Below the pieces are notes generated by a model. The model was not told the origin of the DNA, did not search any database, and worked only from the letters and a program-made list of their open reading frames with translations. From an uncultured Planctomycetota bacterium (GTDB lineage Bacteria > Planctomycetota > Phycisphaerae > Tepidisphaerales > Tepidisphaeraceae), in the NCBI GenBank assembly GCA_963841915.1, contig CAWJEN010000006.1:1344001-1408000 (forward strand): a DNA stretch of 64,000 bases, given 5' to 3'. Made by a program: the position numbers and the translations under genes. Positions 49,411 to 60,166 of this stretch are shown one piece after another. Within the stretch, counting starts at the first letter, position 1, and every line of letters starts with the position of its first letter.

Positions 49411-51213
49411 TTATCGCCGACGCAGGGCCAGCAGGCCACCGACGCTGAGCATCAGCAGTGCGGTCGGCTCGGGAACGGTCGCGGCCCAGGCGTCGATGAG
49501 GTTGAACTGCTGCGTCGTGCCACCGAAATTGGCCCTAAGCACGGCAAAGTCGAGAATCGAGACGGTGCCGTCACGGTTGAAGTCACCGCCTTCGAAGCCG
49601 ACGTCGCCGGATCCAAAATTGCCGCGGAGCAGGGCAAAATCTAGGATGGAGACCGTTCCGTCACCGTTAGCGTCACCGGCGAGGCGGACCTCGCCGGTGA
49701 GGTTGAGCGTGAGCATCTCGCCGATTCCGCCGCCCAGCACGTTGTCGGCGTCGCTGGTTCCGATGCCGAAGATGGCCGAGAAGCTGCCGAACAGGTTGTC
49801 GGTCAGCGTCGCCAGGAAGCTGCCGGACATGCCGGCGGCGATGTCGTCGGCGTCGGCGGTTGCGGTGAAGACGCCGTTGTCGCCGGAGAGGAACGTGGCC
49901 CCATCAAGGTCGAGGCCGGCGACGAACGCGCTGCCGACGTTGAACGCATCAAGGTTGAAGACGTCACCAGTGAGCGACAGGTCGCCCAGACCGTTGCCGA
50001 TGATGCCGAAGTCGAGCGTGAGCGACTCGTCGTCCAGGTCGGCGGCGAAGGAGGCGTTGCTGCCGACGACGGTGGTAGCCGAGAGGTTGATGGTGTCGTT
50101 GCCGTCGTTGTCACCGCGGCCGACACCGCCCTGCGTGGTGACGTCGAGGTTGTCGATGGTGACAGTGCCGCTCGTCGTACCGAGCATGGCGGCGGCGTCG
50201 GCGGGCAGGCTGACGTCGATCTGTTGCGACCCGTTTCCGCCCATGACAAACGCGTTGTAGCGGCCGTTGACGCTGCTGATCGCGTCGCCGTCGGCCGTAA
50301 CGCTGTAGTACGTGCCGTCGAAGCCCGTCTTGTTGAGCGTGACCGTCTGCGTCGCGTCGAGCGTGCTGCCGAGGAGCACCTTACCGAAGTCGACGTCGAG
50401 TGACGACGAACCGTCTGCCGACGTGGTGCCACCGGCCAGACTCAGCGACGTGTCGTTCTCCTGGTCGACAAAGACGCTCCAGACGTACTCGGGCCGATCG
50501 ATGTAGGCATTGCGGTTGTTCGTGTAGAAGTCGTGGATGACGTCGTTGCGGCGGCGTTCGAAGGTGTCGGGGGCATCCTCATAATGCCAGCGCACGAGGG
50601 AAGAAAGATCACCCATCTCGCGATTACCGACATTGCCGGTGCCTTCGACGAGCTTCAGGCCGTCATCTTCCCAGCGAGTAGCGGCGTAGAAAGCGATGCG
50701 GGAGACGTCGCCCTTGTCTGCGTCGCCGGGGTAAAAGTACGCACCGACCTGACGCGCGCTTCCGCTGGTGGTATCCAATCCGAAGCTGAGATTGCTGCGT
50801 TCGGAGTTGATGGACTGCTCGGCCGGCTTAAGCATGTGGACGTCGCCGTAACGGCCGGCGGTGCCGTTGTTGCCGTTGATGCCCTGACGGCTGGCCGGCC
50901 AGACGTGCTCGCGGCTTTCGTAGTTACCGCTCTGCCACGTGTCGTCGTTGCTCTCGCGGGTGTAGACGAGCAGCATGCGACCGGCATCGTTCGGATCCTC
51001 ATCCGTCAGCGGCAGGATGTAGCGCACGGCTCCGTAGGTCGTCTGCTGGTGTCCAAGTTTCAGACGTGCCTCGAGCGAGTTCATGAGCGTCATGCCCGTG
51101 CCGCTGATGTTGTCGTAGTACGAGCCTGCGTCGTACGGATCGACCTGCGCCGAGGCCGGCGCGGCGAAGGAAGAGGCAACAAGAGCGACGGCGGTAAAAA
51201 GGCGGCGATTCAT
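49411..51213 (-). CDS. Secreted endonuclease I (EndA/Bsn-like) with dockerin-like repeats and a PEP-CTERM tail
   Basis: Signal peptide; REHVWP, DVHMLKP, NSERSN, KGDVSR and NRNAYIDRPE motifs; GDANGDGTVSILDF-type repeat twice; VPEP...LRRR tail. Confidence 0.9.
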   Translation of the reverse strand: MNRRLFTAVALVASSFAAPASAQVDPYDAGSYYDNISGTGMTLMNSLEARLKLGHQQTTYGAVRYILPLTDEDPNDAGRMLLVYTRESNDDTWQSGNYESREHVWPASRQGINGNNGTAGRYGDVHMLKPAEQSINSERSNLSFGLDTTSGSARQVGAYFYPGDADKGDVSRIAFYAATRWEDDGLKLVEGTGNVGNREMGDLSSLVRWHYEDAPDTFERRRNDVIHDFYTNNRNAYIDRPEYVWSVFVDQENDTSLSLAGGTTSADGSSSLDVDFGKVLLGSTLDATQTVTLNKTGFDGTYYSVTADGDAISSVNGRYNAFVMGGNGSQQIDVSLPADAAAMLGTTSGTVTIDNLDVTTQGGVGRGDNDGNDTINLSATTVVGSNASFAADLDDESLTLDFGIIGNGLGDLSLTGDVFNLDAFNVGSAFVAGLDLDGATFLSGDNGVFTATADADDIAAGMSGSFLATLTDNLFGSFSAIFGIGTSDADNVLGGGIGEMLTLNLTGEVRLAGDANGDGTVSILDFALLRGNFGSGDVGFEGGDFNRDGTVSILDFAVLRANFGGTTQQFNLIDAWAATVPEPTALLMLSVGGLLALRRR

Positions 51214-52989: not shown

Positions 52990-53070
52990 GGCAGCACCAG
53001 AAGGTCGCAACTGTGGCGACTTCTCCTGCATTGACCTGGAAACAGAGCAAACAAACTCGCCTGGCGTCAA

Positions 53071-53144
53071 TACACCCGGGAGGGCTCGAACCTCCAACCT
53101 TCGGCTTCGGAAGCCGACGCTCTATCCAATTGAACTACGGGTGC
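53071..53144 (-). tRNA. tRNA-Arg(CCG)
   Basis: GCACCCGTAGTTCAATTGGATAGAGCGTCGGCTTCCGAAGCCGAAGGTTGGAGGTTCGAGCCCTCCCGGGTGTA; anticodon loop TTCCGAA; CCA not encoded. Confidence 0.95.
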
Positions 53145-53174
53145 GACAAGAGTCAGCCGACACGGGCTATCTGA

Positions 53175-53246
53175 AGCGGATGATGAGATTCGAACTCACG
53201 ACCCTCACGTTGGCAACGTGATGCTCTACCACTGAGCTACATCCGC
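53175..53246 (-). tRNA. tRNA-Gly(GCC)
   Basis: GCGGATGTAGCTCAGTGGTAGAGCATCACGTTGCCAACGTGAGGGTCGTGAGTTCGAATCTCATCATCCGCT; anticodon loop TTGCCAA. Confidence 0.95.
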
Positions 53247-53289
53247 GGCGGTCAGCACTTTAGCCTCGTCGGAGCACTGGTCAAGTGCT

Positions 53290-54078
53290 TCACAGCCCAA
53301 CGATATTGAAGCCGCTGTCGACGTACAGGTTTTGCCCTGTCGTGCCACTGGAAAGGTCGCTCAGCAGGTACATCGCTGCCTTGCCCACTTCGTCGGCCTC
53401 GATGTTGCGCTTCAGCGGCGCTTTCTTCGTCGTGTGGTCGAACATCTCGTCGATCCCGCCGACGGCCATCGCGCTGAGCGTCCGCACGGGTCCTGCCGAG
53501 ATCGTGTTGACGCGGATCTGCCGCTCGCCCAACTCGTAGGCGAGGTAACGGCTCGTGCTTTCAAGGGCCGCCTTGGCGACGCCCATGACGTTGTAACCCG
53601 GCACGGCCCGGTCGCTGCCGAGGTAGGTCATCGCCAGCATGCTGCCGCCGTCGTTCATATGCGGAGCGACCCGGCGGGCGATATCGATGAAGCTGTACGC
53701 GCTGATGTCCAGCGCCTGGCCGAACACGTCCCGCGGCGTCTCGAGAAATTTGCCGACCGCAAGGTAATCTTTGTTCGCAAAAGCCAGCGAGTGGACGACG
53801 AAATCGACCTTGCCGAGTTCGTTCTGCACGCGCTCGAAATAGGCGTCCATGCTCGCGTCGTCGCTGACGTCGAGCTCGCCCAGGAACGCGTCGTCATACC
53901 CGCCAGCCGCCATGGCCTTGCGGGAGCGGTTCTGGAACTTCTCGCCCGGCAGGTTGCTGACGCCAAGCTTGGCGCCGTGCTTCTTGGCTTGGGTGGCAAT
54001 GGCGTGGGCGATGGAGCGTTCGTTGGCGATGCCGAGAACGAGGCCGGTTTTTCCTTCGAGCAGTGACATGGTGGTCAA
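53290..54078 (-). CDS. fabI: Enoyl-ACP reductase
   Basis: GIANERSIA, VHSLAFA, YNVMGVAKAALE and ISAGPVRTLS motifs. Confidence 0.96.
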   Translation of the reverse strand: MTTMSLLEGKTGLVLGIANERSIAHAIATQAKKHGAKLGVSNLPGEKFQNRSRKAMAAGGYDDAFLGELDVSDDASMDAYFERVQNELGKVDFVVHSLAFANKDYLAVGKFLETPRDVFGQALDISAYSFIDIARRVAPHMNDGGSMLAMTYLGSDRAVPGYNVMGVAKAALESTSRYLAYELGERQIRVNTISAGPVRTLSAMAVGGIDEMFDHTTKKAPLKRNIEADEVGKAAMYLLSDLSSGTTGQNLYVDSGFNIVGL

Positions 54079-54397
54079 GGCTATGGGGTTTCGACCAGAG
54101 ATCGCAAAGACGCGGGAACGGAACGGGAGAGATGAGGAATGAGAGGCAGGGAGGCAGAGTGGCGAGCGACTGGAGGATGAGGCCGAGCCTCCGACGCCGC
54201 CCTCGTTCCTCGTTCGTCGCTTCCTGCGACTTTTCGCCGCAACCCTCGCCTTGTTCGGGGATGCTCTTCAACGGCGACCATCGTCGCTGCCGATCGCCCC
54301 GCCGCGACTTCTCGACTCCCTCCCCAGCGGCCCCCGCCTGGTGATCGGCGACATCCCGTTCGACCTCCCACCGCGGCCATGTCGCAGGAGCGTTGCC

Positions 54398-55582
54398 GTG
54401 ACCGATCAGATCGTTCAACCGTTCGTCGCCGCCCCCACCCCGGGCCAGCCCCGCCCACAGGCCAGGCCGTGGTACCACCTCATTGTCGAGTTCAACCCGT
54501 TCTACCTGCTGTCCGCCGTCGCGATGCTCTTCGGCGTCGGCACGCTGTCGAACCAGTCGACGTGGAACCCCGTCCCGCTCTCGCAGCTCATGCCGTTGCT
54601 CGGGGCGTTGCAGGTCTACGAGATCGCGATGCTCGCCGCCGGCGTCTGGCTGTACAAGCGGGTCGGGCCGCGGCGCGACGCCCTGCAGATCGTCGGCCTT
54701 GTCATGCTCTTCGCCGTCGACGTCTCGTTCCTGATGAGCGAGATCGCGACGAGCAACCTCGCCGTCGGGGCCGCGACCAGTGCCGGGCTGCTCGGCCTTG
54801 CCCTGCTCAAGGGCGGCGTCATTCTCGCGATCGTCCGCCCGATCCTGTCGGCCGCGACCGTCGCCACAGGCCTTGTCGGCCTCGTCGTCCTCCACGCGAC
54901 GCCCGTCCTGCTCACAGGGCTCGACGACGAGCACGGCGGCGTCACCCCGCTCACCTTCTACGCCCTCTGGTGGATCGTCGGCCTCAGCCCCCTCCTCCAC
55001 GACGCCTACGCCTGGTTCTGGCGTGACGCTAAGCCCCGCGGCGAACTGCACAGCAAGTGGTGGCCGCGCGTCATCGCCGGCCTGCCGTGGGTCAGCCTCG
55101 CGATCCACCTCGGCGTGCTGCACTACGTCTACGACCGCCCGTTCATGGCCCCGCACGCGACGCCGCTGCTCATCGGCCTCGCCCTCTTGCTCCGCCCGTA
55201 CGGCCCGGGCCTGATGCCCCTCCGCATCGCCCTGACGATCGTCGCCGCCCTGATCTCGCTGCCCGACCAGCCGCGGCTCGACGTGACGCTCGGCCCGATC
55301 GAGATCGGCCCCGACCTCCTCGGCCTCGCCGCCGCGTGGATGGCGCTCGCCTACGCCAACTTCCCGCGACTCGTCCCGATGTTCGCCGCGACGACGGTCG
55401 CCGCCGGCGGCTGGCGTCTCTTCGGCCCGACGTGGGACCAACTCGCCGCCGTCTTCCGCAGCCTGTGGAGTCTGGTCCCCCGCACCCGCCAATCCCTCGG
55501 CCTGACAGCGGTGATCGGCGCCTTCCTGCTCCTCCTCGCCGGCATCGCAACGAGCCTCCTGCACCGGCCGAAGGCGACGTGA
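54398..55582 (+). CDS. Polytopic hypothetical membrane protein
   Basis: GTG at 54398 with AGGAG RBS; about 11-12 TM segments; FNPFYLLSA motif. Confidence 0.75.
   Translation: MTDQIVQPFVAAPTPGQPRPQARPWYHLIVEFNPFYLLSAVAMLFGVGTLSNQSTWNPVPLSQLMPLLGALQVYEIAMLAAGVWLYKRVGPRRDALQIVGLVMLFAVDVSFLMSEIATSNLAVGAATSAGLLGLALLKGGVILAIVRPILSAATVATGLVGLVVLHATPVLLTGLDDEHGGVTPLTFYALWWIVGLSPLLHDAYAWFWRDAKPRGELHSKWWPRVIAGLPWVSLAIHLGVLHYVYDRPFMAPHATPLLIGLALLLRPYGPGLMPLRIALTIVAALISLPDQPRLDVTLGPIEIGPDLLGLAAAWMALAYANFPRLVPMFAATTVAAGGWRLFGPTWDQLAAVFRSLWSLVPRTRQSLGLTAVIGAFLLLLAGIATSLLHRPKAT
55405..55582 (+). repeat. Direct repeat copy A (3' end of the membrane protein gene)
   Basis: Closely similar to 57719-57905, including the stop codon. 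Confidence 0.9.
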
Positions 55583-55611
55583 CCGCTGGCGAACCGGAGG
55601 GCACCATCGAA

Positions 55612-55647
55612 TAGAAAATGTGCCGGCTCGCCTTCGCGAGCCGGCAC
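55612..55647 (-). terminator. Intrinsic terminator of the minus-strand cassette operon
   Basis: 12-bp stem GTGCCGGCTCGC/GCGAGCCGGCAC followed by ATTTTCTA on the minus strand. Confidence 0.65.
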
Positions 55648-55670
55648 GTCGTGTTGTCAACGGAAGTCGC

Positions 55671-56339
55671 TCAGGCCCTGCGACGCCGGAGCAGGACCAG
55701 CCCGCCCGTCGCGATCAAGGCCAGCGAGCTCGGCTCCGGCACAGCGGTGATGCGCAGTGACACCGGTGCGCTGCTGTCGAGTCGGCCGGCAACATCGTCG
55801 CGCAAATCGTGGGCGATCAACGTCAGGTCGTACGTGCCCGGAAGGAGGGAGAACAGCGTCTGGCCGTGCGGGTGGTAGCCGTTGTCGAAGTCGAGCAGCC
55901 GACCGGCGAGATCAGCGTCGGTGCGGGCGGTCTGCCCATCACCCATGTGCCCCGGAATGAGGAAGCCGATGACGTTGTCGGCCGAGCCATCCACCGCGGT
56001 CACGCCGGCAAGCTCGTAGCTGTAGTCGCCGCCTGCGAGTGGGTCGAAGGCGGCGCTGCTGTAGAAGTCGGTCGTCATCGTCCGTGCAGCGCCTCCGACG
56101 AAGCCGTCGAACGGGCCGCCGACCTGAGCGAACTCGAGCGGCGTGACCAGCGGCGAGCCGTCGAGGTTGACGAGCAGGTTGTTGTCACCCGTGAAGGTCG
56201 CGTCGGTGCCGTACGTGAGGATCTCGAGCGTGCCGTCGCCGTTCTCGTCAGCCAAGCTGATGTGCAGGTGAGCGGAGGCGACGCCGGCGAGACCGACAAG
56301 GGCGAGGGCAGAGGTGAAGAGGGAAATCTTGAAGTTCAT
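55671..56339 (-). CDS. PEP-CTERM surface protein with His motifs (putative metal-binding)
   Basis: Signal peptide ending ASA/HLH; GYHPHGQTLFSLLPGTYDLTL; VPEP-TM-RRRR tail. Confidence 0.85.
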   Translation of the reverse strand: MNFKISLFTSALALVGLAGVASAHLHISLADENGDGTLEILTYGTDATFTGDNNLLVNLDGSPLVTPLEFAQVGGPFDGFVGGAARTMTTDFYSSAAFDPLAGGDYSYELAGVTAVDGSADNVIGFLIPGHMGDGQTARTDADLAGRLLDFDNGYHPHGQTLFSLLPGTYDLTLIAHDLRDDVAGRLDSSAPVSLRITAVPEPSSLALIATGGLVLLRRRRA

Positions 56340-56363
56340 GAGTTTTGGGTAAGGCTTTGAGAT

Positions 56364-57044
56364 TTACTGCGAGTTGCGAGGGTCGAGCAGCGGGTGGTCC
56401 GCGCCGAAATCGGCTCGAAGGACTTTCCACGGCTCGGCCTCGACGTGGCCGTCGACAAAGAGGAAGTTGCTCCAGCCGGCGGGCTCGTTGCCGTGCCGTT
56501 CGACGGCGACGGACGAGCGAAGACCGGCGGCGGTTGTGACGCCGACCATGTGGACGTGATCACCAGGCAGATCACTTTCGACGACAAAGGCCGTCAGCGT
56601 CGGCTTGCGGATGTCCACGAGTTTGAGGAACGGACGGGTTCGCCCGCCCGGAAGTGTCGTGCCTGTGATCGGGTTGAAGTCGATCCAGGCGGTCAGAGGT
56701 TGCATGTAGTCGTTGGTCAGGTAGCTCGTCGTCGGCGACGGCGTGCGGTCGAGCCGCTTGTCGTCCGGGCAGAGCCGGACGTCGACGTCGATGCCGAACG
56801 GGACGAGCGTGTCGAGCCAACCGGTCGGACTCGCCGAGTGTGCGGCGAGCGGGAAGCGGCCGTCGTGGTCGCTCGCATACATCGCGACGCCCATGCCGAT
56901 CTGACGCAGATTGCTGAGGCAGACCGTGTTCTTACCCCGTTGCCGAGCGCTGTTGAGCGCTGGCAGGAGGATCGAAATGAGCAGCGCGATGATGCCGATG
57001 ACGACGAGCAGCTCCACAAGCGTGAAGGCGCTTCGCTGGTGCAT
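56364..57044 (-). CDS. Prepilin-type N-terminal cleavage/methylation plus H-X9-DG (DUF1559-like) protein
   Basis: AFTLVELLVVIGIIALLISILLPAL, CLSNLRQIG, LCPDD, DHVH and RH...SNFLFVDGHVE motifs. Start at 57044. Confidence 0.9.
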   Translation of the reverse strand: MHQRSAFTLVELLVVIGIIALLISILLPALNSARQRGKNTVCLSNLRQIGMGVAMYASDHDGRFPLAAHSASPTGWLDTLVPFGIDVDVRLCPDDKRLDRTPSPTTSYLTNDYMQPLTAWIDFNPITGTTLPGGRTRPFLKLVDIRKPTLTAFVVESDLPGDHVHMVGVTTAAGLRSSVAVERHGNEPAGWSNFLFVDGHVEAEPWKVLRADFGADHPLLDPRNSQ

Positions 57045-57109
57045 GGCAGGTTGTAAAAGGGCGTCGGAACACGACGCCGCAAAGGACCAAGGCCCTTGAG
57101 CAACGCCGC

Positions 57110-57532
57110 TTAGATCACGACAGGCAACGGCCCGATCGGGGGCCCACGCGCGTCGAGGACGCGTACGTCCTCGCACACATACGCGACAACGGGCGGCAAG
57201 GCCGGCACTTCCTCCACCACAACGGGCGGCGGCAGGACGAACACCAACGCCACCGCGACCGACATCCGTGCCGCGAAGTGGCAGACGGCGCAGTTGGCCT
57301 TGCGCTGCTCGCTCATCGGCTCCGGCTCGCCGTCGTTCGACGAGGTCGAGCTTGTAACGGAACAGCACCCGGCCAGGGCAGAGATGCCCGGCCGCCCATC
57401 ATCACGCGTTGCCGTGGGCGGGTCGTAGGTGCCGGGCAGAACGATCTGCCCGCGCGTGTGGCCGGGCACGATCATCAGCAGCCACACCGCCTGCCAGAGC
57501 AGGACGAGAATGTGCAGCGGACGTTTCCTCAT
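57110..57532 (-). CDS. DUF2946-like (CruR/CutF-type) leader protein with CxxC and RGPP motifs
   Basis: Signal/TM N-terminus, CC at 56-57, CAVCH at 81-85, Pro-rich segment, RGPP at 129-132. Confidence 0.7.
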   Translation of the reverse strand: MRKRPLHILVLLWQAVWLLMIVPGHTRGQIVLPGTYDPPTATRDDGRPGISALAGCCSVTSSTSSNDGEPEPMSEQRKANCAVCHFAARMSVAVALVFVLPPPVVVEEVPALPPVVAYVCEDVRVLDARGPPIGPLPVVI

Positions 57533-57580
57533 GCGGACCCGCTCATCGTACGAGATCCGCTTCGCTCTCGATCTTCACGG

Positions 57581-57667
57581 ATGTCGCAGCCACGCTTTGT
57601 CGCACCGACGACGGCCGGCACGCTCATGGCCTTGGCCGGCACCGCCCTGCTCCGCCGTCGGCGGTAG
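57581..57667 (+). pseudogene. Orphan PEP-CTERM tail remnant
   Basis: ...VAPTTAGTLMALAGTALLRRRR* with no upstream passenger domain. Confidence 0.5.
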
Positions 57668-57718
57668 CGGAAGCGACGTTCAAGCAGCCCTCGCCAGCCG
57701 CCGCCCGGCCTTCGCCGG

Positions 57719-57905
57719 CGGCGGCTGGCGTCTCTTCGGCCCGACGTGGGACCAGCTCGCCGCCGTCCTCCGCGGCCTGTGGAACCTGATCCCCCCACGC
57801 CCCCGTACCCGCCACGCCCTCGGCCTGACGGCGACCATCGGCGCCTTTCTACTCCTCCTCGCCGGCATCGCGACGAGCCTCCTGCACCGGCCGAAGGCGA
57901 CGTGA
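57719..57905 (+). pseudogene. Direct repeat copy B: duplicated 3' fragment of the membrane protein gene
   Basis: GGWRLFGPTWDQLAAV...LLHRPKAT*, with substitutions and a 9-nt insertion relative to copy A. Confidence 0.85.
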
Positions 57906-57950
57906 ACACGCTAGAATGGCTTCGGGGGATTCCGCTGAACGAGGCCGTTA

Positions 57951-58688
57951 ATGAACCACGTACTGAAGCATCACCTCACGATCATCGTAGTCGTGCTCGC
58001 GTCCGCTTGGCTGTCGGTGGGTTTTGCTGACGCTCAGGTGGCCGAGGACGGCGATCCTGGTGAGGCTCTAGCTGCAGAAGACACCGCATACCTCGCTTAC
58101 GCTGAGTGGGTGGAAAGCCTCGATGAGGGTTCGCCTCGCGACGCGGCCGGTGGGTTGCTCGTCTGCGGATTCGATGATGACTTCGCAGCCGTAATTCCCG
58201 ACAACGAGCAGGTGTCGACATCACGGAATATTGCCGAGGGCTACTGCCTCTTCTTCGCGGGCGTTCGGGCTTTCCAGCGAGAGGCCGACGGCCAAGTTGC
58301 AGTCGATCCGATGGCGATGCGTAACGAGCTGAAGCACGTCTCCGAAGTCGTCAGTCTGGACTCTGGCGATAGAGAGTTCGAGGCGACCGTGCACCACTTC
58401 ATCGCTCCCAACGGCTTCGTTGTCGCTGACATGACACAGGTGCAGGGCGATTGGAAACAGGTAGCTGCTTTGTCGGCGCTATATCAACAGCTCGGCCTCA
58501 CGCCGCAACAGGTCGATGTACGGGATCTCGGGCAGTTTTTGGCTCAACTCGGCATCTCGCTATCCGCGACAGCGGAGGGAATCGAGCAAGGCGATCTGAC
58601 GAAGGATGAGGGCCGTGCCAAGATGCAGTCGCTTCAATCGAGCTTGTTCCGCCGGTATTCTCGCAAAGCCGCTGACCGGCAAGAGTGA
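57951..58688 (+). CDS. Hypothetical secreted protein
   Basis: 245-aa ORF with a signal peptide (..GFADA/Q); visibly more A/T-rich than the flanks. Confidence 0.7.
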   Translation: MNHVLKHHLTIIVVVLASAWLSVGFADAQVAEDGDPGEALAAEDTAYLAYAEWVESLDEGSPRDAAGGLLVCGFDDDFAAVIPDNEQVSTSRNIAEGYCLFFAGVRAFQREADGQVAVDPMAMRNELKHVSEVVSLDSGDREFEATVHHFIAPNGFVVADMTQVQGDWKQVAALSALYQQLGLTPQQVDVRDLGQFLAQLGISLSATAEGIEQGDLTKDEGRAKMQSLQSSLFRRYSRKAADRQE

Positions 58689-58714
58689 TGAAGCAGGCTG
58701 TGCTGAAACACGGC

Positions 58715-58873
58715 CTACGAAGAAGCTCTCGGCCGGCGGAGGAGGTTGGGCGGGGTCGGCGGCGGGCGGACGACGCGGTCTCCGCAACGGCAGGATCAGT
58801 CGGCGTCGTAGACGCCCTCCCGCACGAGGCGGCCGAAGCTCGACCACGGCCACTTGTGCGGGCACGTCGCGAC
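58715..58873 (-). pseudogene. C-terminal remnant of a REP-associated tyrosine transposase (RAYT/TnpA-REP)
   Basis: VATCPHKWPWSSFGRLVREGVYDAD*SCRC matches the RAYT C-terminus (WPWSSF...GVY..DW), with W apparently mutated to TGA; abuts a REP doublet. Confidence 0.7.
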
Positions 58874-58882
58874 GCGGTTGCT

Positions 58883-58956
58883 CGGGTGCCACGACACGCA
58901 GTGTCGTGATGCGGCTGAGGACGCTTCAACCACGACACTGCGTGTCGTGGCACCCG
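58883..58956. repeat. REP doublet (REPIN-like)
   Basis: Perfect 26-bp inverted repeat CGGGTGCCACGACACGCAGTGTCGTG with a 22-nt spacer; each arm is internally palindromic (CACGACAC-gca-GTGTCGTG). Confidence 0.85.
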
Positions 58957-59122
58957 GCACCCGGCGTACGGATGTGCGGGGCTGGGGATTGGCGCATCGA
59001 CCGCCCGCGACACGCAGGCGCGGCGTCTTATCGCCGGGCATCGGCTCAACGGCCTGCCCGCCTCCAATGGCGTCGAGCCGCCGCCGCCCCGCCCCGAGTC
59101 CCGGCCGCCCGGAACCGTGCCA

Positions 59123-59164
59123 ACCTCATGTTGGCACGAGTCCACTTCATGTTGGCACGAGCCC
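59123..59164 (+). repeat. Tandem 21-bp repeat (2 copies)
   Basis: ACCTCATGTTGGCACGAGTCC / ACTTCATGTTGGCACGAGCCC. Confidence 0.7.
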
Positions 59165-59379
59165 ACCCGCCCGCGACACGAGCCCATGCCGGCCTGCCTC
59201 GATGCCCCGCGAGGGCGACACGAGGCCACCGCGGATGGACTCGAGCCCCTCCGACCGCGGCGGGATGACCAACGGTTTTACATCAACACATCACGACGGT
59301 TCCGCGATCCGCCAGCCTCTGTTGCATCCCATAACGCGCTGCGCCGCCAGCGTCTCCGCGGCGATCTCGCGCAGCAACG

Positions 59380-59626
59380 ACGCAAAGCCGCCGACCCGGC
59401 CGACTGGACGCTCGAGCGGCTGTCGGGCAAGACGACGATCAATCTGATCTACCCGAACCTCGCCGGCGAGACGACAGTGTGGGCCCGCTGCGCCTACCTC
59501 AACGGCCGCAACGAGACGGGCCCGGCGAGCCCGCCGGTCTGCGTCCGCCTCCCCGGCAACGGCCTCGTCGCCCCGGCGGGCCAACTCGGCGGCGACGCCG
59601 GGCAGCCGATGAAGATCGCGGCGTGA
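59380..59626 (+). pseudogene. Probable C-terminal fragment of a beta-sandwich (Fn3-like) hypothetical protein
   Basis: PADWTLERLSGKTT...VWARCAYLNGRNETGPASPP...MKIAA* has good coding pattern only in the 3' part; no credible N-terminus. Boundary approximate. Confidence 0.45.
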
Positions 59627-59746
59627 GGTTGGGGTGTCGGTGGAGATTCATGGCCAGCCGCGACCCGGAGGGTTGCGGCTGGCGTTCGTTTGGAGGGGTA
59701 GGTTCGTCTAATGCCGGTGGCTGACGCACACCCGGCTGCTGTTCGT

Positions 59747-60166
59747 TCATGTTCTTCGAATCACATATCGATTTCGTTGCTGCTTCATGTGGACCAGCAG
59801 TGCTTCGTAAGCCTCGTCACCAATCATGTAGGAGAACGTTCGTCGCATCTCGACGACGTCGCTGTAGGTGAACCAGCGTGGCATGTCTTCACGAGCGAGC
59901 TTAATCGTCGGGATCTTCTCATAGAAGCACGTCGCGACAGCGCTGAGCGGATCGTACGGAGGATTGTCGTTGCGACGGGCTCGTACACACCAGTCGGCGA
60001 AGGCATAGATGCGAGCGATGAGTGCTTCGTCACGCGGCTCCTTGCGATATGCGTCTTCAAAGGCAAATCCTATCTCGATCCAGAGCGACATCACCGAGTC
60101 CGCAGTATCGATCTCCTGCTTAAGCTCCGGCAGACGTTCATTCGCTTCCCTCCGCCAAAGAGCCAT
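59747..60166 (-). CDS. Hypothetical helical protein (possibly immunity-protein-like)
   Basis: 139 aa; WRREA...LWIE...RIYAFADWC...AVATCFYEKI; more A/T-rich than the flanks. Confidence 0.7.
   Translation of the reverse strand: MALWRREANERLPELKQEIDTADSVMSLWIEIGFAFEDAYRKEPRDEALIARIYAFADWCVRARRNDNPPYDPLSAVATCFYEKIPTIKLAREDMPRWFTYSDVVEMRRTFSYMIGDEAYEALLVHMKQQRNRYVIRRT

Follow-up and report, generated by a model that had tools for sequence, protein, structure and literature searches.

A CruR-type leader peptide heads a pilin-like and surface-protein operon in a Tepidisphaeraceae bacterium and may act as a metal-starvation switch

Within a 64,000-nucleotide (nt) stretch of contig CAWJEN010000006.1 from an uncultured Tepidisphaeraceae bacterium (the whole of which is called the window here), we investigated a minus-strand operon in which the gene for a DUF2946/CruR-like leader peptide (gene 1) precedes a prepilin-like gene (gene 2) and a gene for a PEP-CTERM surface protein (gene 3). 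The module of leader, pilin-like protein and surface protein is real and conserved, and we favor, with moderate confidence, the view that the leader is a CruR-type metal-starvation switch, most probably for zinc, that would act on a surface metal-scavenging module. This view rests on sequence motifs and the distances between them, on gene order, on matches to known families and on relatives in which one form of regulation has replaced another. A preliminary description of the same DNA had listed three co-oriented genes closed by a terminator; a leader with CC, CAVCH, a Pro-rich stretch and RGPP 44 residues past the CxxC; a 65-nt gap with a GGCGTCG/CGACGCC hairpin followed by CTTTT; DHVH in gene 2; and PEP-CTERM, His-Leu-His and HPH..PGTY in gene 3. 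All of these are present, the genes as minus-strand open reading frames (ORFs) ended by a 12-bp hairpin. Statements on published systems below refer to passages of the papers cited.

The leader and the conservation of its module

The leader, which is the first gene of the operon, has a hydrophobic N-terminal stretch (computed hydropathy of 1.6 across residues 7–25), followed by C56-C57, C81-A-V-C84-H85 and R129-G-P-P132, the last of these 44 residues past the CxxC and trailed by 8 residues. A search against DUF2946, which the preliminary description had proposed, gave a near-full-length match to PF11162 (E 5.5e-4, 21.1 bits against a cut-off of 23.7, profile positions 5–117 of 117), and the assignment of the leader as DUF2946/CruR-like is supported at the level of sequence. 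When all stop-to-stop frames of at least 60 amino acids in the whole genome were counted, the pattern CxxC-(43-48)-R[AGSP]PP-(0-8)-stop was found in 2 of 33,719, namely the leader itself and the leader of a paralogous operon on contig C4. The three close homologs of the leader (50–53% identity) keep both CC and CAVCHF, the latter being invariant across 4/4 sequences with the leader included; two of them terminate in RAPP and the third carries RGVP and, further on, RGPP. Matching source records suggest that two of these homologs are linked with gene 3 homologs.

In CruR (Bp2923 of Bordetella pertussis), 45 residues separate CxxC from RAPP, this spacing is kept within 1–2 residues, both motifs are required and copper relieves the arrest, leading to Rho termination (PMC9426467). 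Like CruR, the leader described here is the first gene of its operon and has an export-like N terminus, a CxxC ∼45 residues before RxPP and a non-coding gap behind it. However, CruR carries RAPP, is followed by a gap of 162 nt and controls a TonB transporter and a PepSY protein, whereas RGPP, a gap of 65 nt, no excess of C over G, a context pointing to zinc and a pilin-like and a PEP-CTERM protein as targets are seen here. On other peptides, arrest was shown to be most robust with RGPP in several contexts (PMC12992588). A few CruR homologs are mentioned in Planctomycetes in PMC9426467, the main-text passages of which do not contain the word pilin. CutF of Rhodobacter capsulatus (PMC9973294) is also alike, being a DUF2946-like leader with a Cys motif, an end rich in Pro and a short gap that contains a stem-loop, but it has CxxxC and PPP, is induced by copper and acts by unmasking a Shine-Dalgarno (SD) sequence, in contrast to the CxxC/RGPP, the hairpin without an SD and the uptake-type targets of the operon studied here.

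A profile of the gene 2 C-terminal domain, built from five proteins, was searched in 401 genomes of the class and matched 179 of them at E ≤ 1e-8; in a phylum-wide sample (n = 201, E ≤ 1e-12), the 9 genomes that scored positive all belonged to the same class. We examined 70 loci drawn from the best 76 rows of the class-wide search (five rows skipped, C4 paralog uncounted), some of which are close kin, so that counts overstate independence. A leader was scored as present if it lay within 450 nt and had a CxxC-RxPP window of 40–50 residues, and on this basis 51 of the 70 DHxH prepilin loci have one (47/66 once the four seed loci are removed, two of which had been picked for lying behind a DUF2946 match). 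The spacing from CxxC to RxPP is 43–48 residues across all 51 leaders, their tails measure 1–8 residues, and the arrest motif is RAPP in 35, RGPP in 13, RPPP in 2 and RSPP in 1. The conservation of CxxC, RxPP, spacing and gene order that the preliminary description had presupposed is borne out by these loci. Gene 2 is 32–56% identical to the prepilins of this subfamily, and, in part as an effect of the profile used, D162 and H163 are kept in 70/70 loci, D198 in 69, H165 in 66 and H200 in 64.

As a control, we considered the genome itself, which holds 40 prepilin-like and ∼107 PEP-CTERM-like ORFs. Two of the 40 prepilin-like genes carry a leader, both in the DHxH subfamily; a PEP-CTERM neighbor stands beside 13 of the 40, and pairing of this kind is not peculiar to the operon. 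The paralogous operon on contig C4 (L049; G000:C4:83898-87363) comprises a DUF2946 leader (84279-84653) that clears the PF11162 cut-off with 33.4 bits, a DHTH prepilin and two choice-of-anchor M PEP-CTERM genes, both above the cut-off of that family and one with a dockerin-like repeat. The complete leader-prepilin-PEP-CTERM triplet occurs in one same-family genome (L021), and no locus could be confirmed in a separate search of metagenome and genome collections for related loci. At a further locus (L081), the usual slot of the CxxC-RAPP leader upstream of the prepilin holds another Cys-rich leader-like ORF, with many CC and CxC motifs and ending in PPPRRA.

The surface proteins and the candidate metal

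Gene 2 scores above the cut-off for the N-methylation motif (PF07963, 26.3 versus 21.2 bits; TIGR02532, 20.3 versus 16.3 bits). Its H-X9-DG match is weak (TIGR04294, 15.7 bits versus a cut-off of 19, with a longer spacer), its DUF1559 score is 22.5 versus a cut-off of 23.3, and in the Atlas search its domain matched unnamed clusters. Gene 3 is above both PEP-CTERM cut-offs (PF07589, 24.5 versus 20.7; TIGR02595, 23.9 versus 16) and contains the His motifs A-H24-L-H26 and H156-P-H158..PGTY, with signal-peptide cleavage ahead of His24 as read by eye. The claim of the preliminary description that the leader sits ahead of a pilin-like protein and a surface-anchored His-motif protein is supported by these family matches and motifs.

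The family of gene 3 has no name; a search of representatives at 50% identity found 64 of its proteins at E ≤ 1e-10. When 64 selected full-length members were aligned, H24, H26, H156 and H158 proved at least 90% conserved; 2 of 7 close homologs have an extra residue before the first His. A full-length homolog is present in 1 of 40 relatives, the other matches being to the PEP-CTERM tail. A first AlphaFold model from 8 sequences was unusable (predicted local distance difference test score, pLDDT, 44.6); a model from 64 sequences has a pLDDT of 90.6 and an all-beta mature domain. Foldseek with this model returned only generic beta-sandwich matches (query TM ∼0.3–0.4) and no close solved fold, and the gene 3 profile had 0 matches among Protein Data Bank sequences. 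Nine of the 64 family members match choice-of-anchor M at E ≤ 0.01, an hhalign comparison of the two families gave 75% over 36 columns around the second HxH, and gene 3 may, on weak sequence likeness, be a distant relative of choice-of-anchor M.

As for the partner proteins, the next gene at the 70 loci matches a choice-of-anchor M profile in 24 cases, another His-motif profile in 19 cases and that of gene 3 in 12, with five overlaps and 20/70 partners matching none, the first two profiles having been built partly from these same loci. Judged by pattern, the partners are anchored by PEP-CTERM in 40 cases and are dockerin-like in 15, with neither pattern in 15. Hand-picked partners of the first type pass NF038134 in 7/7 cases, and 7 of 9 partners of the second type weakly match the All3515/ZepA model after removal of the PEP tail (E 2e-7 to 6e-3, far under the cut-off).

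Both types recall zinc proteins. ZnuE/F/G and CmrA/CmrA2 of Corynebacterium diphtheriae are surface-anchored and carry two His motifs 130–150 residues apart; these HxD/HxH proteins are zinc-regulated and zinc-binding, with motifs that bracket ∼150 residues, and their in vitro zinc binding is not conclusively tied to the HxD/HxH motif (PMC12445094). The same bracketing pattern is seen in the choice-of-anchor M partner alignment (A6), partners in related loci pass choice-of-anchor M (NF038134/TIGR03769) and show HxD..HxH, and from the motif we infer that the C. diphtheriae proteins are of the NF038134 family. Gene 3 differs from them in having HxH..HxH, PEP-CTERM instead of a sortase anchor and a leader instead of Zur control. 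ZepA (All3515 of Anabaena; NF040463), a PEP-CTERM exoprotein that mediates zinc uptake (PMC10957091), resembles gene 3 in its signal peptide, His-bearing N terminus, PEP-CTERM and beta-rich model, and the passages of that paper mention no pilin partner or leader. However, the mature domain of gene 3 has no NF040463 match and lacks the ZepA motif H-X2-9-H-F/Y-H, weak matches being seen only in partners at other loci.

Further evidence comes from promoters. The palindrome TGCAA-N5-TTGCA, with one mismatch allowed, is found within the promoter zones of 11 of the 70 loci (14 hits versus 0.49 expected, with the rest of the same loci as background), a count that includes the two loci in which it was first spotted and draws on related genomes that are not independent. 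Four of the 19 leaderless loci bear it, 58–157 nt upstream of the pilin motif, and in 7 loci it lies upstream of a leader. It matches the site TGCAAATcATTTGCA found by DNA affinity purification sequencing for C. thermocellum Fur_1691 upstream of a zinc ATP-binding cassette (ABC) transporter, a site whose link to zinc is one of gene context, the response to zinc not being part of that study (PMC8457756). At one leaderless locus (L089), the gene directly before the prepilin, in the slot of the leader, reads by eye as Fur-family. Because of the Zur-type box and the zinc-linked partner families in relatives, the metal of the module looks like zinc more than copper; the Cu/Ni-binding His1/His3 site that the preliminary description had proposed for gene 3 gives way to comparative evidence pointing to zinc instead.

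PF11162 matches were found in 23 of 401 genomes of the phylum, and 17 pass the motif test. Behind those 17 leaders are His-motif porin-like genes (10), DHxH prepilins (3), DUF1559 genes (2), a ZnuA-family gene (211.7 bits) and a Flp-type pilin gene. The porin-like proteins have ∼400–550 amino acids, HxH and C-terminal His motifs and, in the 8 scanned, no Pfam/NCBIfam match; by eye, ABC-type binding proteins follow the porin-like gene in seven extended loci. In the list of PMC12992588 the label "zinc-regulated TonB-dependent receptor" follows RAPP leaders. Side observations from this set are that the porin-like family stands between DUF2946 leaders and ABC metal-binding proteins at L029, L031, L034-L036, L040, L041 and L045-L047; that a DUF2946/RAPP leader lies ahead of a Flp pilin and a Tad-like cluster at L056 (G370:C61:20000-30000); and that DUF2946 leaders precede classic DUF1559 genes and then His-rich proteins at L054 and L055 (G282, G240), the latter with a second leader 3.9 kb downstream.

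Proposed mechanism, read-out and competing explanations

According to the starvation-switch view, scarcity of metal would let the ribosome stall at RGPP, and genes 2 and 3 would stay on. Binding of metal by the Cys residues, just outside the tunnel exit, would pull the nascent chain free; the released ribosome would then reach the stop codon, and genes 2 and 3 would be switched off at the level of transcription or translation, through Rho as the probable general route or possibly, at this locus, through a rival-hairpin switch. The gene 3 product would be exported, anchored by its PEP-CTERM and hold metal between its two HxH motifs; the gene 2 product would become a processed pilin-like subunit with a DHxH/H-X9-DG metal site.

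Rho is the probable general read-out for the leader family. In 46/51 leaders the final 150 nt contain more C than G (36/51 in the control, Pro codons inflating C), and a rho gene is present in this genome. The preliminary description had pointed to the gap hairpin with its T-run and had read the leader as a metal-responsive attenuator. That hairpin (57078-57060) has 7 bp followed by C and four T and was not called by the terminator scan, and the arrangement is not conserved among the 46 homologous gaps having an ATG, which form the basis of all hairpin counts. A conserved intrinsic terminator was also rejected (0/46 gaps with at least five T; 4/46 with at least four T versus 2.65 expected), hairpins of any kind being modestly enriched (31 versus 18.5 expected). 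At this locus, the first 39 nt past the leader stop codon can pair with the 5′ arm of the gap hairpin, giving a rival hairpin of −22.8 versus −12.5 kcal/mol. Folding with a ribosome at Pro131 yields the rival hairpin, and folding with a ribosome at the stop codon yields the gap hairpin; the two are predicted to have the geometry of an attenuator with CruR polarity, and a local RNA hairpin switch at this locus is possible. Unmasking of an SD as in CutF was rejected, the hairpin having no SD and starting 58 nt past the arrest codons; no SD is visible in the 65-nt gap or within the hairpin, and the predicted cost of opening the start region is 3.5 kcal/mol when free versus 4.1 kcal/mol with a stalled ribosome.

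Several results weigh against the starvation-switch view or against zinc as its metal, in addition to the two limits attached to the palindrome count. The gap folded by itself retains the 57078-57060 hairpin, switch-like folding is not enriched in homologs (17/46 versus 22.7 expected), the PF11162 score of the leader is under the Pfam cut-off and the leader lacks the C-over-G bias (−0.07) seen in 46/51 leaders. Gene 3 reaches 13.8 bits versus 55 for choice-of-anchor M NF038134, with HxH..HxH instead of HxD..HxH, and appears unrelated to the ZepA-like partner set (hhalign 18%). No TGCAA-N5-TTGCA box was found at this locus or at the ZnuA-family operon of this genome, and no zinc transporter was found among the 65 of 76 downstream ORFs scanned. 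Both characterized DUF2946 leaders, CruR and CutF, sense copper, with opposite polarities (PMC9973294; bioRxiv 10.1101/2025.02.05.636593). Further, the leader's own clade (4 of the 51 leaders) is His-poor and Cys-rich, the remaining 47 having 3–13 His ahead of the CxxC, and one operon (L114) carries a gene for SCO1/SenC, a family used in copper handling.

The last three of these points favor the same stalling switch with copper as its signal, as in CruR, in which case the module would scavenge copper and be repressed by it; we regard this as unlikely. Also in line with copper, the mature N terminus of gene 3 may begin with His, and in the Atlas the strongest lead for gene 3 points to a "metallo-mystery pair four-Cys" cluster (0.84, under the reliable range), which we take to be MbnP-like. 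Copper is opposed by the Zur-type box and the Fur-like gene in relatives and by the zinc-linked families of the partners, and the residue ahead of the first His in close homologs argues against a strict His1 brace. Somewhat less probable still is a switch that responds to shortage of a different divalent metal (Mn, Co, Ni or Fe) or of several, the His-rich surface proteins serving as broad sponges. Neither cluster A-I binding proteins nor Fur-family boxes are exclusive to zinc, and the partners span at least three families with 20/70 unclassified, but the published site matched by the box is linked to zinc ABC transporters and both identifiable partner families have experimental zinc links. 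Some CutF-like leaders have been suggested to sense Ni or Co (PMC9973294), which also fits a broader range of metals.

We consider it very improbable that the polarity is that of CutF, with metal excess inducing the stall and turning on genes whose surface proteins would sequester toxic metal. The hairpin is too far past the arrest codons for direct melting and covers no SD, the placement of the box in leaderless relatives suits a repressor site and the partner families are those of zinc-repressed uptake proteins; for such a polarity speak the short gap, the hairpin near the start codon and the missing C-over-G bias in this clade, all as in cutF-cutO, and the DUF2946 gene that heads the Zur-activated czrCBA-zntA efflux operon of Caulobacter (PMC4176598). 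Given the least weight of all is a leader that monitors export or membrane insertion in the manner of SecM/ApdP, or that is a post-transfer vestige, its Cys residues not being sensory. The signal-like N terminus, the second hydrophobic segment, the close homolog with RGVP and the apparent insertion of the cassette between duplicated gene ends (see below) would agree with this; the fixed CxxC spacing in 51 leaders, the invariant CAVCHF in 4/4 sequences and the metal-type partners throughout would not.

Precedents, cassette origin and surroundings

The leader type is already known, RAPP leaders before DUF1559 genes being present in the source data of PMC12992588 (2025), in which DUF1559 genes are enriched 6.5-fold after RAPP upstream ORFs (112 RAPP versus 68 AAPP among the matches listed). 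RAPP/RGPP upstream ORFs before a "DUF1559 domain-containing protein" in that paper have the same leader-prepilin arrangement, and the example row has a CxxC. The entry is a table row that gives no subfamily, partner or metal, and the passages of the paper lack the words pilin and PEP-CTERM. Because RAPP leaders upstream of DUF1559 are an enriched class there, the module is not wholly unreported, and the statement of the preliminary description that no characterized example is known has to be narrowed: the leaders before DUF1559 genes had been listed, whereas the module of DHxH pilin and His-motif protein and its zinc link were not found described. In the literature covered, mostly outside subscription journals, we found no DHxH prepilin, no leader-pilin-PEP-CTERM module and no zinc-sensing DUF2946 leader, and metal-sensing arrest peptides are characterized for copper only (CruR, CutF).

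We put forward tentatively, and with some doubt, the broader proposal that the CruR-type leaders of this bacterial class are nascent-peptide zinc sensors interchangeable with Zur, which would control a DHxH pilin-like subunit together with exchangeable His-motif proteins, anchored by PEP-CTERM or dockerin, as a zinc-capture apparatus at the surface. If true, the leaders would be the first arrest peptides described, as far as we could find, that sense zinc, a class of H-X9-DG prepilin-like proteins would gain its first function, and the ∼38 other paralogs per genome might serve a scavenging pilus or pseudopilus as ligand-specific subunits. Most of the 40 prepilin-like genes of this genome are of unknown function, and one sharply defined subfamily, marked by D162/H163 in 70/70, would gain a testable role in metal starvation alongside known types of zinc-binding surface protein. 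Loci with a leader, a Zur-type box or both on the same operon offer a natural test of zinc sensing by arrest peptides.

Coordinates of the operon and flanking features in the window
Feature	Position	Strand	Description
DUF2946/CruR-like leader, gene 1	57110-57532	-	140 amino acids; hydrophobic N-terminal segment, then CC and CAVCH, a Pro/Val-rich second hydrophobic segment and RGPP
Predicted arrest site of the ribosome (RGPP codons)	57137-57148	-	from sequence; RAPP in 2/3 close homologs
Gap from leader to gene 2	57045-57109	-	65 nt; hairpin 57078-57060 and four T, predicted rival hairpin
Prepilin-type/H-X9-DG protein of DHxH subfamily, gene 2	56364-57044	-	226 amino acids from ATG; D162, H163, H165, R183, H184, D198, H200
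PEP-CTERM surface protein, gene 3	55671-56339	-	222 amino acids; HxH...HxHG (H24, H26, H156, H158), predicted all-beta mature domain
Intrinsic terminator-like hairpin at operon end	55647-55620	-	12 bp, then T-run
Left direct-repeat copy, ∼190 bp	55398-55582	+	3′ end of neighboring membrane-protein gene, flanks cassette
Right direct-repeat copy	57712-57905	+	91–92% identity with a 9-nt insertion; immediately upstream of the promoter region of the leader

Duplicate copies of the final ∼190 bp of the neighboring membrane-protein gene, 91–92% identical to each other, stand on either side of the cassette. In a same-genus genome (G003) the cassette is absent and the membrane-protein gene stands directly before the flavin-reductase-like gene; because of this arrangement, the cassette looks inserted at this site, as judged from the one genome compared. 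The third-codon-position G+C content (GC3) of all three operon genes is 0.83–0.86, similar to that of the fabI-like neighbor. At 57951-58688 there is a 245-amino acid, signal-bearing ORF with no family match and a GC3 of 0.67, which is probably part of the inserted stretch. An Rfam scan of 53000-60000 found nothing within the operon, its matches elsewhere being two tRNAs and sub-threshold hits. Outside the cassette, the window contains two minus-strand tRNA genes at 53071-53246 and a gene at 49411-51213 for a PEP-CTERM endonuclease I with a dockerin domain, and at 58862-58977 there is a long imperfect inverted repeat with 47-nt arms that scores weakly against microRNA models and is possibly a small repeat element.

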